Origin: an uncultured Alcaligenaceae bacterium
GTDB lineage: Bacteria > Planctomycetota > Planctomycetia > Gemmatales > Gemmataceae
Direction of reading: 5' to 3'
Length of the DNA: 17,942 nucleotides
NCBI GenBank assembly: GCA_964552815.1
Contig: CAZKIQ010000067.1
Span: forward strand, 1-17,942
Below, piece by piece: positions 3,119 to 7,895 of this stretch (the first letter of the stretch is position 1; each line of letters begins with the position of its first letter). Below the pieces are notes generated by a model. It ran no database searches, was not told the origin of the DNA, and worked only from the letters and a program-made list of their open reading frames with translations. The position numbers were made by a program, and so were the translations under genes.

Positions 3119-3652
3119 ATGATCCGCCATGCAACCATCTGCCTCGCCCTTCTGGCCAGTGCGACCGCGGCGAGTTCCACCGCGGTCGCAGACGATGAGA
3201 TCACCCCGGTCCGGCTCCGCCTCACCGTGAGTGCGGAAGAGTATGACCCCATCGCCGGGGGAGCCGGGAAGCTGATTGTCACCTGCCAGAACCGACTGGA
3301 CGAGCCCGTTACCATCCAGCTTGGGCTGCACGCCAACGGCCACCATTGCGGAATCGATCCGGCGAAGACGGCGAAGATCACCATCCCGGCGAAGAAAACC
3401 CTCACGGTTTTTGAAGCGACGTTGGACGAACTCTTCTACGAAGGCTCCGAAGCCAATGACGCAACACCAAGGAAATACGGCTGGAGCTGGTTCCGGCGGT
3501 CCTCCCCGCCTGGCCCACTCCGGAAACAGGGCACACGGGAATTTGTCAAGGAAGTCCGGATCCATGCCGAGGCCACGGTCAAAACGGGAAGTCAAGTCTG
3601 GCAGTCCGAGCTCATTCCCGTGTGGATCAAACCTTCTCTCCCGAAAAAGTGA
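3119..3652 (+). CDS. Secreted hypothetical protein (signal peptide MIRHATICLALLASATAASSTAVA)
   Basis: The 177-aa ORF has a clear Sec signal peptide and AxA cleavage site. It is divergent from the DUF58 gene. I recognise no domain. Confidence 0.55.
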   Translation: MIRHATICLALLASATAASSTAVADDEITPVRLRLTVSAEEYDPIAGGAGKLIVTCQNRLDEPVTIQLGLHANGHHCGIDPAKTAKITIPAKKTLTVFEATLDELFYEGSEANDATPRKYGWSWFRRSSPPGPLRKQGTREFVKEVRIHAEATVKTGSQVWQSELIPVWIKPSLPKK

Positions 3653-3667
3653 TGGGATAAGGTGCCG

Positions 3668-3838
3668 TCACTGCGCGGCGATTTCGATGGCGCTATGCAG
3701 TTCGACGACCGTGCCGCGGCCCACTGCATAGCGGAAGTTGGTTCCGAGGGTGGCCCACCGCTGGGCCGCGTCCACGGCCACGCACCCGACGCTGGCGGTC
3801 AGCGCCAGGGCGACGACCCAGAGCAGCGACCGCCTCAC
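3668..3838 (-). CDS. Possible small exported or lipoprotein-like ORF of about 56 aa with a GTG start. It is not in the track because it is under 60 aa.
   Basis: Minus-strand translation gives VRRSLLWVVALALTASVGCVAVDAAQRWATLGTNFRYAVGRGTVVELHSAIEIAAQ*. It has a signal-like N-terminus with a Cys after the hydrophobic stretch. It is convergent with the 3119-3652 gene. Confidence 0.2.
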   Translation of the reverse strand: MRRSLLWVVALALTASVGCVAVDAAQRWATLGTNFRYAVGRGTVVELHSAIEIAAQ

Positions 3839-4643
3839 GCCGACCCCCTCCGCTGCCGACTATGAGTGTTGGTGTCAAGTCTCCTCAATCATAATCCCTG
3901 CGGCGCGGACCGTCCACGCCGCGGGGGGTGACGCGTTGCCGTTCTTCCGAGCATGGTTTTGCCGACGTCGCTCGCTCACCCTGAGTCAGAGCGGCGGCGG
4001 CAAAACCATGCTGGCTTTCCCTCGCCTCGCGGCCATCAGACGCCAGGCATTTCGTCAGGTGAATCGGGTCGGCGGCGTGTCTCGGGTTCAGCCGCACGAC
4101 CCCAAGTTCGACGTGCGGACCGCCCTGTACCTGGCGACCGGCGTCGACCTCACGGCGGTCGAGGGGATCGACGCGGTCCACGCCCTGACGCTGGTCAGCG
4201 AACTCGGGTGCGACATGACGAAGTGGCCGACGGTCGGCCAGTTCGCGAGTTGGTTGGGGCTGTGCCCGCAGTTCAAGAAGACGGGCGGGAAGGTGCAGTC
4301 GAGCCGGACGCGCAAAGGGAAAGGGCGGGCGGCCCAGGCGTTCCGATTGGCGGCGTGGGGGTTGATGCGGAGCAAGAGTTATCTGGGTGCGTACCTGCGT
4401 CGGCAGCGGAGTCGGTTGGGTGCCCCGAAGGCGATCACGGCAACGGCCCACAAGCTGGCGCGGATCGTGTACCACCTGATGCGGTACGGCGAGGCGTATG
4501 TCAAGAAGGACGAGGAAGCGTATGCCGAGCAGGTGCGGGAGCGGTTGGAGAAGCAGTTGCGTCGGCGAGCGAAAGAGTTGGGGTTCGAGGTGGTGAGGGT
4601 GTCGGCGGAGCCGGACCCGAGTGACACCCCATTGTCAGCGTGA
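3738..4643 (+). pseudogene. 5'-truncated IS110-family transposase. Only the C-terminal Transposase_20-type domain is present, with homology starting near 4090. The N-terminal DEDD catalytic domain is absent.
   Basis: The C-terminal 180 aa read LYLATGVDLTAVEGIDAVHALTLVSELGCDMTKWPTVGQFASWLGLCPQFKKTGGKVQSSRTRKGKGRAAQAFRLAAWGLMRSKSYLGAYLRRQRSRLGAPKAITATAHKLARIVYHLM. This matches the conserved IS110/IS116/IS902 C-terminal domain pattern (L..PG.G...A..L.AE.GD..RF.....A.Y.GL.P...SG......G.I.K.G...LR..L..AA...A.AHKLARI.Y.L). The upstream 100 aa have no DEDD-domain features such as a VGIDVSK-like motif. Confidence 0.7.
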
Positions 4644-4849
4644 CGGCGGTCGGGTTCGGGCCACAACCACAAGGCGGGCGATCCCCGCACCGAGTCCCGC
4701 GGCTCGCGTTCCCGGATGCGAGTATGCCGAAGGACCGCGCCGGTCGTCATCCCGAGGAGCGAAGCTCAAGGGAGCGGGCGATCATCCGCCACCGTCACCC
4801 GAGGAAGTTCCTGGGGCTGGGGCGGCGTCTTGGGTCGTAGGCGTCGGGG
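3944..4849 (+). mobile_element. Remnant of an IS110-family insertion sequence. Boundaries are uncertain. The non-coding 3' flank at 4644-4849 is included.
   Basis: A truncated transposase is followed by about 200 nt of non-coding sequence containing short GC-rich hairpins (gcgggcgatccccgc). The remnant sits at the distal end of the cassette-like array, next to cassette B, whose own attC is not recognisable. Confidence 0.35.
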
Positions 4850-5242
4850 TCATTCCCCGCGGACCAGCAGCCCCTCCGTCCGCCGCCCGTCGGACGTCTC
4901 AAGGACCACGGTGAGGAAGTCGATGCCCGGGCGGGTCTGCTCCTCCCAGTAGACCGTGCCCGCGGCGTCTCGCAGCCGGACGGTGCATGACCCGTGGGGA
5001 CCGGGGTGGTAGTACAGGAACCCCGCCAGCCGCCGGCGGTACGGCCCAGGCAGGTCCGGCGGGTGCTTGACCCGCCAACTGCCCTCGAGGTCCTCGCGGC
5101 AGAGTTCCTCTAGAGTTAGGGTCGGCACCGGCTCGGACTCCGGAGGTCGGGCCTGATCCCGCGGCCACAGCAGGTACGAAATCGCGACCGCCGCAACTGC
5201 CGCGAGCCCCACCAGCCACCACTGCCGACGGAACAATCGCAA
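4850..5242 (-). CDS. Cassette B: small membrane-anchored hypothetical protein of 130 aa, with an N-terminal TM helix and a TTG or GTG start.
   Basis: Translation begins (M)RLFRRQWWLVGLAAVAAVAISYLLW, giving a signal-anchor followed by a soluble domain of about 100 aa with two Cys. The SD-like GGAGGG lies 7-8 nt upstream of the TTG start. GTTCGGC lies about 15 nt upstream of the start, matching the pattern of the other cassettes. Confidence 0.5.
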   Translation of the reverse strand: MRLFRRQWWLVGLAAVAAVAISYLLWPRDQARPPESEPVPTLTLEELCREDLEGSWRVKHPPDLPGPYRRRLAGFLYYHPGPHGSCTVRLRDAAGTVYWEEQTRPGIDFLTVVLETSDGRRTEGLLVRGE

Positions 5243-5257
5243 CCCACGCCCTCCGCC

Positions 5258-5353
5258 GCCGAACGATCGTGCTCACTTGCCGGGGCCGCTGCAAGACTTC
5301 ATACCGCGCGAAACCGTGATGCGGCCCCGGTCAAGTGCAGCACATGGTTAGCG
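5258..5353 (-). repeat. attC-like imperfect palindromic site number 1, of about 96 nt. Read in the gene direction it runs from R'' CGCTAAC to R' GTTCGGC. It sits between cassettes C and B.
   Basis: On the plus strand the arm gccgaacgatcgtgctcacttgccggggccgctgc pairs with gcggccccggtcaagtgcagcacatggttagcgg. Pairing is imperfect, with indels. The element is homologous to the elements at 5831-5928 and 6555-6652. Confidence 0.55.
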
Positions 5354-5376
5354 GTTGGCCCCGCGCGAGGCCGGCA

Positions 5377-5817
5377 TCACAAGCTGGTCCAGATGAGTAG
5401 CGTCTTTTTCTCAAGCTGCGCTGACTCGGCGGTGTCGCCGATGCTGCGCAACAAGTCGAGAACTTCAGATGCGTCCCATCCCTCCAATTCCTCAGTCGCG
5501 CCCCAGCGATCTGCAAGTGATTCGTGCTCGTCTTCTTCCATGCTTGCGATTGAGGCTAGTGCCCCCAGCATTTTTAGTGGAACGATGTCAACCCATGGGC
5601 CTTGATCGCCTTCTGGGATGGTCCGTATCTCGTCGAGCCGTTGTTCGAGTGTGTCTTCCGCCGAGCCAGCCTCAACCAAGGCCCACAGGGTTGCGAGCTT
5701 GATGCGATCCAGCCCACGGTAGAAGAAGCCGTCCCAGGTCTGCGAAGGCTCGTCGGACGCTGCGACTGCGTCAGCTTCCGAGGCATCGGCAACGAGTAAG
5801 TGGTTGAGAACGCCCAT
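5377..5817 (-). CDS. Cassette C: acidic hypothetical protein of 146 aa.
   Basis: ATG start and TGA stop. Translation begins MGVLNHLLVADASEADAVAASDEPSQTWDGFFYRGL.... The protein is strongly acidic, which is typical of immunity-type or antitoxin-type proteins. I recognise no family. Confidence 0.55.
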   Translation of the reverse strand: MGVLNHLLVADASEADAVAASDEPSQTWDGFFYRGLDRIKLATLWALVEAGSAEDTLEQRLDEIRTIPEGDQGPWVDIVPLKMLGALASIASMEEDEHESLADRWGATEELEGWDASEVLDLLRSIGDTAESAQLEKKTLLIWTSL

Positions 5818-5830
5818 GCGAGAACTCTGC

Positions 5831-5928
5831 CGCTAACGCACAAGCTCACCTGCCGGCGGGGCATAGGTGGGCTCCACGTCCCAGAAACCAATGATGCCCC
5901 GCCGGTCAGGTGCAGCGACTGGTTAGCT
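5831..5928 (-). repeat. attC-like imperfect palindromic site number 2, of about 98 nt. Read in the gene direction it runs from R'' AGCTAAC, which overlaps the TAA stop of cassette D, to R' GTTAGCG.
   Basis: On the plus strand the arm cgctaacgcacaagctcacctgccggcggggcat pairs with atgccccgccggtcaggtgcagcgactggttagctg. The central loop is about 27 nt. Confidence 0.55.
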
Positions 5929-6537
5929 GCGGCCGAACACGTCTAACAGGAACTCCCTGCACGAATCGTACAACGGTTGCACCAACGGAGCCAACGCCTC
6001 CCGCCGCCGACAGTTATCCGGACCGAGCGGAATGAGCGATTCGTGATCCATCCACACAACAGGACATTCGCCGTCGGCTCGCCTCTGAACGGCGTCGAAG
6101 CACATCGGCCCCCATCCATCGCCCCATTGTGCCAACGGAACGAAGCCCGCATCGATTAGCGGCCGCCATGCCTTCATTAACTCTCGGAGCGGTTTCAGCG
6201 GCTTCCCTGCCGGCGTGTCCGTCATGAAGATCTGTTGATCATAACGCCGACTCCGCACCTGATCGAACAATTGGAAACGAGCGAGCAAGTACGCCCGAAA
6301 CACCGGCGGGAACTGCACGCCGAACTCGCCTTCGATGACACTCACGTCAGAGTCTTTGAGAGTCGAAGGCAGGACTCGCCATGCAACCCAACCGTCCGCG
6401 TTGACCTCGCCGACTTGCATTTCCGGCGGGACGCCAGCGTCTGCTGGGTCTTCGGCGGCGACGCCCATCCGCCATGCGTCGGTGGCATATGAGTCAAGGA
6501 GCCGGCCGACAAACGCGCTGTCGTCCGCGACGGCCAT
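5923..6537 (-). CDS. Cassette D: SMI1/KNR4 (SUKH-1) family protein, a putative immunity protein. The track ORF extends to 6684, but that extension reads through the attC-like site and overlaps the upstream gene.
   Basis: The block VSVIEGEFGVQFPPVFRAYLL corresponds to the SUKH-1 N-terminal LG..fP.dY..FL block. The block FVPLAQWGDGWGPMCFDAVQRRADGECPVVWMDHESL corresponds to the pFa.d..GN..cfd......p.VvfWDHE block of SMI1/KNR4 proteins. The SD AGGAGG lies 6 nt upstream of the second ATG (MAVADD...). Confidence 0.7.
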   Translation of the reverse strand: MAVADDSAFVGRLLDSYATDAWRMGVAAEDPADAGVPPEMQVGEVNADGWVAWRVLPSTLKDSDVSVIEGEFGVQFPPVFRAYLLARFQLFDQVRSRRYDQQIFMTDTPAGKPLKPLRELMKAWRPLIDAGFVPLAQWGDGWGPMCFDAVQRRADGECPVVWMDHESLIPLGPDNCRRREALAPLVQPLYDSCREFLLDVFGRS

Positions 6538-6554
6538 CGGCATCCTCCTGTAGC

Positions 6555-6652
6555 GGCTAACGCACAAGCTCACCCGCGGCGGCCGCTGATGAGACGTTGA
6601 ACTCTGAAAAACCGTGATGCGGCCGCCGTCGGCGTGCAGCGACTTGTTCGGC
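6555..6652 (-). repeat. attC-like imperfect palindromic site number 3, of about 98 nt. Read in the gene direction it runs from R'' GCCGAAC, 8 nt after the TAA of cassette E, to R' GTTAGCC.
   Basis: On the plus strand the arm ggctaacgcacaagctcacccgcggcggccgctgat pairs with atcacggtt...gcggccgccgtcggcgtgcagcgacttgttcggc. Confidence 0.55.
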
Positions 6653-6659
6653 GAAGACC

Positions 6660-7229
6660 TTAGGATGGGCTGCGTCGCTGCCAACGGAATCCCTTGACAA
6701 ACAGCCTCGATTCAACCGTCCCATCCCATTCGACGTTGAATCCCTCGCGCTCCAATGAGGCACGCAACATTTTTCCGACCTTCACAGCCTTCGCATCGTT
6801 TCCCGAGCGATGCCCAAAACCGATGTAAAGGCCGCTTCCATCTAACGCTCCTTCTTGGTCCTGCTCTGTATAGAAGCAATGGCCAGCGTAGTCGGATTTT
6901 GTGAGACCGGATTCGTGGAAAGCATCCTCGACTTCCTCTATCCCGTCCGATTGGTCGAACCCGGCCCGGTGTAGAGCGATGATTCCTTGGGCTTCAAGCA
7001 TGGTGAATGCCCGATCAAGGCGATCGAAGTCGGTCACCTTCGGCCAGGTCTCTTCCGCCTTCCGCTTGGCCTCGAATTCGCTTCGGATCACTTCAAGCAG
7101 CCATCTCTTGCCAGCGTCGTCGAGTTCGCCGTAATGGTCCCTGATGTAAAGGGCGACGTCTGCCTCGTCGAACTCTCCGCTCCAGAGGAGGGACCGAACG
7201 CAGCTCAGGATGTCCTCGCGAGTCGCCAT
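6660..7229 (-). CDS. Cassette E: hypothetical protein of about 189 aa. ATG at 7229 is the probable start. The GTG at 7241 given in the track overlaps the SD.
   Basis: Translation begins MATREDILSCVRSLLWSGEFDEADVALYIRDHYGELDD.... It continues GIIALHRAGFDQSDGIEEVEDAF...AGHCFYTEQDQE...LYIGFG. The motif pattern resembles, from memory, a family of uncharacterised actinobacterial DUF proteins. The SD GAGGAG lies about 11 nt upstream of the ATG. Confidence 0.6.
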   Translation of the reverse strand: MATREDILSCVRSLLWSGEFDEADVALYIRDHYGELDDAGKRWLLEVIRSEFEAKRKAEETWPKVTDFDRLDRAFTMLEAQGIIALHRAGFDQSDGIEEVEDAFHESGLTKSDYAGHCFYTEQDQEGALDGSGLYIGFGHRSGNDAKAVKVGKMLRASLEREGFNVEWDGTVESRLFVKGFRWQRRSPS

Positions 7230-7246
7230 CGCCCGCACCACTCCTC

Positions 7247-7332
7247 GCCGAACATGGGATTAGATTGCGCCGGCGCAATCTATCACGAACCCGCTCTTAC
7301 GCACCATCTTCAGCCGTAACTCACAGTTCAAG
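7247..7332 (-). repeat. Degenerate fourth attC-like element upstream of cassette E. Its low-coordinate terminal 7-mer is GCCGAAC (GTTCGGC in the gene direction). It contains a perfect 18-nt palindrome, GATTGCGCCGGCGCAATC, at about 7263-7280.
   Basis: The sequence agttcaagctgcggttgtgg at 7325-7344 resembles the R''-proximal ends of sites 1 and 2 (ggttagctgcggccgaac, ggttagcggttggcc). ttgcgccggcgc resembles the arm motif ttgccggggccgc. No minus-strand ORF lies upstream of it. Confidence 0.3.
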
Positions 7333-7577
7333 CTGCGGTTGTGGACGATTTTATGCCACTTACCCGCGCGACCTATCACACTAACGGACCTTGCGCCGAT
7401 TCATACCCGCCCTGAATTTACGTCACCCGTCCAGCGGGCTCTTCACGCCCGCCCGCCCTTGTTCAGCACGTGCGTGTCGATCATCGTGGTACTCACGTCG
7501 TCGTGCCTGAGCAACTCCTGGACCGTGCAAGTGGTGCCGCCGTCGCTCACCGGTCCGTGGGTCGACGGACAGTTTAA

Positions 7578-7895
7578 CCGACGGGAAGACGTTTTGCCAC
7601 CGAAGTCCGCGGCGACATGGTCGCCCCTTCCACTTCGAAACAGGAGATTTTCTTCCGCGGCACCAAGTTTGACATCAAAACGCAGGACGTCAAGAACCTC
7701 AAGGAAGGGGAGTGGAACAGCTTCGAGATCGTCGTGGCCGGCGACCAGGCGGAGTTCTTCGCCAACGGCGAGTCCCTGAAGAAGTTGAAGGTGAAGCCGG
7801 GGAAATCACCGCTGGGAATCCGTGCCGAGTTCGGTCCCATCGAAATCCTCCGAATTCGCGTCAAGGAATCGCCCGCCGTCCCACCAGGCCAGTGA
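7578..7895 (+). pseudogene. C-terminal fragment of about 95-105 aa of a DUF1080 / 3-keto-disaccharide hydrolase (PF06439-like) domain protein. The N-terminal two thirds are absent. An in-frame stop lies at about 7575.
   Basis: The sequence ...QEIFFRGTKFDIKTQDVKNLKEGEWNSFEIVVAGDQAEFFANGESLKKLKVKPGKSPLGIRAEFGPIEILRIRVKE matches the DUF1080 C-terminal pattern (WN...I...G.....NG..V....G.I.LQ.H.....FRNI.IK.L). The upstream frames contain none of the N-terminal part of the domain. Confidence 0.45.

Follow-up and report, generated by a model that had tools for sequence, protein, structure and literature searches.

Integron cassettes, decayed integrons, and integrons with an inverted integrase are already known (PMC4889954, PMC8352920). 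The inverted-integrase integrons, of the Treponema/Planctomycetes type, are described in the IntegronFinder paper, which also reports intI pseudogenes and insertion sequence (IS) elements beside clusters of attC sites lacking integrases (CALINs) (PMC4889954). Arrays of immunity genes are known as well: toxin-free polyimmunity loci adjoin XerC/D (PMC3482391), and the rAID-1 clusters of orphan immunity genes in Bacteroidales were described as "reminiscent of integrons" (Ross et al. 2019, bioRxiv 10.1101/471110). Here we describe a gene from a probable planctomycete (contig CAZKIQ010000067.1; GTDB family Gemmataceae) that lies on an integron cassette, which we will call D, and that encodes a protein of the SUKH superfamily. 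By "the window" we mean the whole stretch of DNA that was analysed, 17,942 nucleotides. Our search of a literature library found no paper that ties integron cassettes to SMI1/KNR4 or SUKH genes, and the combination may be undescribed, though it is expected. The locus adds an example, not a new principle.

The array is built like a sedentary chromosomal integron or a CALIN: promoterless single-ORF units (ORF, open reading frame) end in attC sites with R''/L''-L'/R' pairing, bulged bases, and a G|TT crossover. As described for CALINs, a pseudogene of intI and an IS element stand beside it, and as in the inverted-integrase integrons, the integrase is oriented as the cassettes are. It differs from chromosomal integrons in that the integrase is inactive and about 35 codons long, there are only three attC sites, and the attI site and the cassette promoter (Pc) are undefined. 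With polyimmunity loci and rAID-1 clusters, it shares co-oriented small genes without toxins, an adjacent tyrosine recombinase, repeated intergenic sequences, and content that varies from strain to strain. However, the machinery here is an IntI/attC integron instead of a XerD-like system, and among the four genes of the array, D is the only one from a recognised superfamily of immunity proteins.

Cassette D and its attC sites

Gene D is a single promoterless ORF, oriented toward its attC site, on a discrete integron cassette. The cassette comprises 724 bp of the minus strand (5837-6560), from the TT at 6560, in the upstream R' box, to the G at 5837, in its own R' box, and it contains a ribosome-binding site, the SUKH ORF, and its attC site. 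(The spacing of the direct repeats around it is 723-724 nt.) The ORF (5923-6537, minus strand) encodes 204 amino acids, and an AGGAGG ribosome-binding site lies 6 nt 5' of its ATG (6537). Its TAA stop is embedded in the R'' box of the attC site (AGCTAAC, 5928-5922). This attC site (5828-5931, minus strand), with the R' box GCG|TTAGCG at 5839-5831, has a folding energy of -30.9 kcal/mol (z = -4.6) and scores 83.3 bits against our covariance model. The 5' limit of the cassette is the R' box (6563-6555) of the attC site of the upstream cassette, E (6552-6655, minus strand; 90.6 bits). The third attC site (5255-5356, minus strand), which folds as a bulged hairpin, belongs to cassette C.

These three elements of about 100 nt (6552-6655, 5828-5931, and 5255-5356) are related to each other, and each folds, as single-stranded DNA, into an attC hairpin. 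R'' and R' pair at the end of each hairpin (xxCTAAC ... GTTAGxx), which also has an unpaired spacer, a stem of L'' and L', and a variable loop, and in all three sites two bulged bases on the R''-L'' arm break up the L''/L' stem. For two of these sites, the fold is clearly better than that of shuffled sequences (z of -4.1 to -5.0), while for 6552-6655 it is not (z about -1.5). All three match the covariance model at 83-91 bits.

For that model, nine sites, taken from the window and from loci related to it, were aligned under a structure of 19 pairs that was specified by hand. In this alignment, 77.8% of the cells are paired, versus 29-38% if the partners are slid. In nine pairs, both partners have changed, and covariation scores 0.247, as compared to 0.125 for shuffles. 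Six of the pairs with changes on both sides are in the L''/L' helix, which is 89.6% paired. Two previous models were superseded (one built from three sites was too specific, and the RNAalifold structure had only eight pairs), and a finder that used regular expressions and folding was dropped because it gave false positives and misses alike. A first-pass annotation of this DNA had described the gene as isolated between attC-like sites, which the folds, the covariation, and the model scores all bear out.

Array versions and the decayed integron

The cassettes of this array are demonstrably reshuffled between natural samples. We found metagenomic contigs for comparison by exact-protein look-ups. 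One contig, L001 (sample SRR12816584), matches the window from 7275 to 4577 at 100% identity; it ends within the IS110 fragment that is described below. A contig from another sample, L054 (SRR14143323), agrees with cassette E (window 7252-6559) at 100% identity and diverges to either side of it. In the part upstream of the 7252 TT, its sequence differs from the window. Right after the GCGTT of the cassette E attC site comes a different cassette, X (L054:741-1133; 130 amino acids), which sits between the DUF6891 cassette (E) and the SUKH cassette in this sample. L054 ends with the 30 nt with which another contig, L002, begins, and the attC site of X overlaps this start of L002. L002 runs through that different attC site into cassettes D and C, with 99.85% identity to window 6572-5260, and after the GATCGTT of the third attC site it continues into another sequence or cassette (Y), not unit B. 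(The L002 copy of cassette C has a 1-nt indel.) There are two versions of the array: attI-E-D-C-B and ?-E-X-D-C-Y.

Three points of the window limit the homology to L054 or L002 (7253|7252, 6561|6560, and after 5264), and each of these breakpoints coincides with a predicted G|TT crossover. Breakpoints exactly at G|TT are such as integrase-mediated insertion or excision would leave, so the case for cassettes is much stronger than one made from the letters of the window alone.

The locus is a decayed chromosomal integron with a short array, and it belongs to the "inverted integrase" type. On the minus strand, the order is a presumed attI site, cassettes E, D, and C, and unit B, with an IS110 fragment at the distal end. 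The intI remnant (7426-7529, minus strand), upstream of cassette E, points in the direction of the cassettes, and this identifies the inverted type. Only the C-terminal box II is left, and it is frameshifted: the remnant reads CTVQELLRHDDVSTTMIDTHVLNKGGRA, then the frameshift, then GVKSPLDG and a stop. The entire N-terminal part is gone, and in what remains, the catalytic tyrosine is replaced by aspartate (IDTHV). The remnant matches the integron integrase model TIGR02249 (E = 1.1e-10, positions 275-313 of 315) far better than it matches XerC/D models (E = 2e-3 to 4e-3), and its best match in the PDB is VchIntIA (2a3v; E = 3.5e-5).

We place attI between the remnant and the first crossover, ATG|TTCGGC at 7253|7252 (7243-7425, minus strand), because homology to L054 begins exactly at 7252; no attC site was detected in this region. 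The functional intI, attI, and Pc of a complete integron do not stand beside the array, as Pc was not found and attI is presumed. Since the local integrase is dead, movement of the cassettes must rely on an IntI that is supplied from elsewhere. Such an IntI would act on the folded single-stranded attC sites, with strand exchange at G|TT, and the array would be expressed from a promoter upstream of it.

A marginal match to the attC model directly upstream of the intI remnant (7532-7628, minus strand; 11.6 bits, E = 0.06) is probably due to chance. Where the N-terminal part of intI is gone, there is instead a short ORF (7617-7895, plus strand) with a sub-threshold match to 3-keto-disaccharide hydrolase (DUF1080-like); it looks like a gene fragment that abuts the truncated intI. 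At the other end of the array, the IS110-family transposase fragment (3738-4643, plus strand; Transposase_20 in Pfam, E = 3.8e-12) is truncated at its 5' end and lacks the N-terminal DEDD domain. No attC site was found for unit B or near this fragment, even with the filters of the covariance search turned off. Between the IS110 fragment and a DUF58 gene lies an ORF of 177 amino acids (3119-3652, plus strand) with a signal-peptide-like N-terminus and no family match. The GC content of the cassette region (5200-7600) is 57-62%, versus about 65-70% in the flanking housekeeping genes.

An immunity role for the other cassettes is not supported. Cassette E (6561-7252, minus strand; ORF 6660-7229, 189 amino acids) encodes a DUF6891 protein (PF21831 in Pfam, E = 7.8e-51), and its homologs in Zavarzinella formosa and another complete genome are solitary, among housekeeping genes. 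Cassette C (5264-5836, minus strand; ORF 5377-5817) encodes an acidic protein of 146 amino acids (isoelectric point 4.1) that had no family match in library searches. Its structural model (predicted local distance difference test, or pLDDT, of 90) matches only YfbM from Escherichia coli (1ryl), and weakly (E = 3.7e-3). YfbM is a protein of unknown function. The family of C is small, with 49 homologs, mostly on short contigs. Unit B (4850-5263, minus strand; ORF 4850-5242, 130 amino acids) starts right after the R' box of the third attC site, and neither unit B nor cassette X has a family match.

The first-pass annotation had considered C and E to be immunity-like or antitoxin-like. That idea is not supported: profile searches of B, C, and E gave no immunity family. 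Literature searches on DUF6891 and on YfbM with immunity returned nothing relevant. The array is also not dominated by homologs of known immunity families, as polyimmunity loci and rAID-1 clusters are, given DUF6891 in E, a weakly YfbM-like fold in C, and no matches for B and X. Because D and C are together in both versions of the array, we considered whether they are a functional pair, and we rejected this because homologs of C are never beside homologs of D at other loci.

The cassettes beside D homologs elsewhere encode Macro, zinc-ribbon, GNAT, methyltransferase, DUF6348-like, and 2OG-Fe(II) oxygenase proteins. This is the usual miscellany of cassettes, which supports a mobile cassette pool but does not support a pool that is dedicated to immunity genes. 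Of the earlier suggestion that mobile immunity genes are shuffled here, the shuffling stands and the dedication does not.

The D protein and its family

D is established as a member of the SUKH superfamily, both by the matches of its family to PF09346 and SUKH_5 and by the structural matches of its AlphaFold2 model. The product is a soluble, acidic (isoelectric point 4.6), single-domain protein with a SUKH fold and no evident signal peptide. Most of its 207 database homologs have the same length, 204 amino acids. In an alignment of 37 sequences, the top-conserved positions fall in two blocks, EFGVQFPPVFRAYLL and WGDGWGPMCFD...VVWMDHE. Both motifs that had been quoted as hallmarks of SUKH-1 are present in these blocks, and the protein is indeed SUKH-1-like, with a SUKH fold. 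All 37 of the aligned proteins match SMI1_KNR4 (PF09346) at E <= 0.01 (7e-7 at best); 20 of them match SUKH_5 and four match SUKH_6. Remote members of the family, as defined with a hidden Markov model, score 31-73 bits on PF09346, which exceeds its cut-off. At the family level, assignment of D to SUKH-1 (SMI1/KNR4), its closest group by sequence, is well supported.

We also compared the family profile to 1.84 billion representatives, and we found 483 clusters (at 50% identity) with E <= 1e-3, of which 64 had E <= 1e-30. The family is compact, and nearly all of its members are single-domain proteins of about 200 amino acids. Searches with the sequence of D against NCBIfam, PADLOC, PHROGs, and the PDB gave nothing useful; the sole PDB match, to a fragment of GyrB (E = 0.1-0.24), was dismissed as chance.

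The AlphaFold2 model of D is confident (pLDDT 93.6, predicted template-modelling score 0.89). It shares the SUKH alpha+beta fold with Syd, YobK, Knr4, 2icg, 2pag, and 3d5p. After Syd, its structural matches are the solved immunity proteins Tdi1 (6.8), RhsPI (6.6), and Atu4351 (5.3). The core that is matched by Pfam is residues 63-168, and it is preceded by about 55 extra residues that form a helix and strands. Several homologs of D (P0093, P0102, P0110, and P0114) share a C-terminal extension (…NKSTGANAGGPQQPPVRKSWAARIAQF…), as would result from an ORF that runs on into a conserved repeat of the attC type.

Homologs of D were located at 16 genomic loci, 31 metagenomic loci, and several long contigs, or about 40 distinct loci after de-duplication. 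These are mostly from Planctomycetota (Pirellulaceae, Gemmataceae, Tepidisphaeraceae, Rhodopirellula, and Blastopirellula), along with two Myxococcota loci and a single one of Acidobacteria; a metagenome-assembled genome of Pirellulaceae holds the closest genomic relative. We inspected the neighboring genes at about 20 of the loci, including long contigs from Planctomycetota and Myxococcota. At least six loci besides the window have a D homolog between attC-type repeats: the repeats are of the same type as ours in L003, L029/L030, L033, and L049, and of another type in L012 and L031. The upstream neighbors of the homologs are not conserved.

Two other loci have unusual repeats. In L024 (1417-1445), the stop codon of the homolog is inside GGCTAAC, and GTTCGCC follows 6 nt on, so that R'' and R' are nearly back to back, and there is no attC site upstream; this may be a collapsed fossil attC site. 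In L035 (2540-3420), the homolog lies between repeats of about 110 nt that are in inverted orientation, each with GTTAGCC/GGCTAAC.

In Myxococcota (L020, L021, and L022), the D homologs lie within islands that resemble toxin-antitoxin or defence islands, with HEPN-NTase, GIY-YIG, PD-(D/E)XK, and UPF0175/DUF3368 genes. There, the D homolog is abutted upstream by a non-conserved gene of about 200 amino acids, which is weakly AbiEii-like in L020. We rejected this gene as a conserved partner, as the tightly abutting genes show no relationship between L020 and L022, nor any to DUF6891. Similarly, a candidate toxin upstream of the homolog in L007 is an ORF of 726 amino acids without a toxin domain in Pfam. 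A homolog that is 85% identical to D (P0003, on a 49.9-kb contig, JGI 3300047160) is found at the margin of a group of genes for phage structural proteins (portal, capsid, and HCP-like).

Is D an immunity protein?

That D is a cassette-borne gene for a SUKH-fold protein is, taken alone, close to certain. For the role of this protein, we rely on its relatives. Bacterial SUKH proteins are predicted to be immunity proteins (PMC3113570). Also, distant relatives of D include tandem SUKH-SUKH and SUKH-ankyrin fusions, and such architectures have been described as polyimmunity proteins (Zhang et al. 2012, PMC3482391). Together, these give modest support to an immunity role. By analogy to its superfamily, D may be an immunity protein, and we put this at about even odds. 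Like other bacterial SUKH proteins, D probably binds a partner protein in its cleft, and of its conceivable roles the most likely is that of an "orphan" immunity protein, which would neutralise a toxin that other bacteria deliver. SUKH-1 immunity proteins such as YobK of Bacillus subtilis and RhsPI (Zhang et al. 2011, PMC3113570) are encoded downstream of toxins, which D is not at the loci that we inspected, and D also differs from them by its N-terminal extension, its low Pfam score, and its unusual conservation.

Several observations weigh against this explanation. D itself scores just 17.0 bits (E = 0.009) against PF09346, below the gathering threshold of 25.4 bits. Syd, the top structural match of D (Foldseek agrees), is not itself an immunity protein. 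Members of the family are 60-89% identical across phyla and have 28 invariant columns in the alignment of 37 sequences, which makes the family atypical of the fast-evolving immunity proteins. No attC site was detected at many of the D homologs (L004, L005, L009, L011, L014-L016, L019, and others), which shows that gene D is not exclusively cassette-borne. No sigma-70-like promoter was found in 4600-7700, in a scan that may miss planctomycete promoters. And none of the roughly 20 inspected loci has a toxin gene beside the D homolog.

The window does not have a toxin either. A Pfam scan of every substantial ORF in its 17.9 kb found no toxin domain; it found chorismate synthase, DUF58, the IS110 transposase fragment, a Gfo/Idh/MocA oxidoreductase, BON, an Fe-S biosynthesis protein, a xylose-isomerase-like protein, GT2, and SPFH/flotillin. 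Tight linkage to a toxin gene, as expected for an immunity protein, was seen neither here nor at the inspected half of the 40 or so homologous loci. The first-pass annotation had reported no toxin ORF for 10 kb on either side of the gene. This holds for the window, but the window reaches only 5.9 kb to the left of gene D, not 10 kb, and a conventional toxin-immunity pair might have its toxin gene just beyond, as the source contig is reported to be 29 kb long. We view such a pair as largely refuted and exceedingly improbable: both of the immediate neighbors of D are separate cassettes that are bounded by attC sites, and its upstream neighbor varies between samples.

Some SUKH members have roles other than immunity. 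Syd (SUKH-2), for instance, is the SecY-interacting protein of E. coli; it is found for the most part only in gammaproteobacteria and firmicutes (PMC3113570). D might similarly bind a component of the membrane or of secretion, or it might be a regulatory adaptor, and its capture in cassettes would then be incidental and limited to some lineages. The conservation of the family across phyla, the missing toxin partner, and the fact that most homologs are solitary among ordinary genes, without attC sites, would fit with this. But D resembles Syd in structure only: Pfam's Syd family matches none of the 37 members, D has no match to Syd among PDB sequences, and by sequence the family is SUKH-1. Furthermore, the 483 clusters of the D family, out of 1.8 billion representatives, are spread patchily over Planctomycetota, Myxococcota, and Acidobacteria. 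The patchy distribution, together with the occurrence of the family in cassettes and in variable islands of toxin-antitoxin or defence-like genes, indicates that D is accessory and horizontally traded rather than housekeeping. We doubt that D has a non-immunity role, although we take this idea seriously.

The island genes of Myxococcota (HEPN/NTase, AbiEii-like, and PD-(D/E)XK) and the phage portal and capsid genes beside the 85%-identical homolog could also point to a conflict between phage and host, in which D would act in defence or anti-defence instead of in immunity to the toxins of other bacteria. SUKH domains are present in DNA viruses (PMC3113570), and a preprint (bioRxiv 10.1101/2024.07.02.601686) reports that the cassettes of chromosomal integrons are rich in anti-phage systems. 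However, D has no match in PADLOC or PHROGs, it is a single small binding domain without an enzymatic or sensor module, and phage genes were adjacent just once. We consider a role in phage conflict to be quite improbable.

Overall, our explanation is that cassette D is the second unit of an E-D-C-B array in a decayed chromosomal integron and that an orphan immunity role is the most likely one for its SUKH-fold product. We consider this explanation as a whole to be probable, albeit with considerable doubt. A broader idea is that IntI/attC integrons in Planctomycetota and their neighbors trade orphan immunity genes, with D guarding its host against a widespread toxin of other bacteria. Such integrons would be an equivalent, built on IntI and attC, of the rAID-1 ("acquired interbacterial defence") arrays of Bacteroidales. 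We think that this idea is unlikely.

Most cassettes of chromosomal integrons have no known function. D has a confidently assigned fold, and the shuffling of its array between natural samples is documented. The locus is a clean and well-delimited example of cassette mobility, and it provides a testable candidate for immunity. If D does neutralise a toxin, then pre-emptive defence against interbacterial toxins would be carried by integrons as well as by polyimmunity loci and rAID-1 clusters, and the idea would extend to Planctomycetota, where extended polyimmunity loci are unreported.
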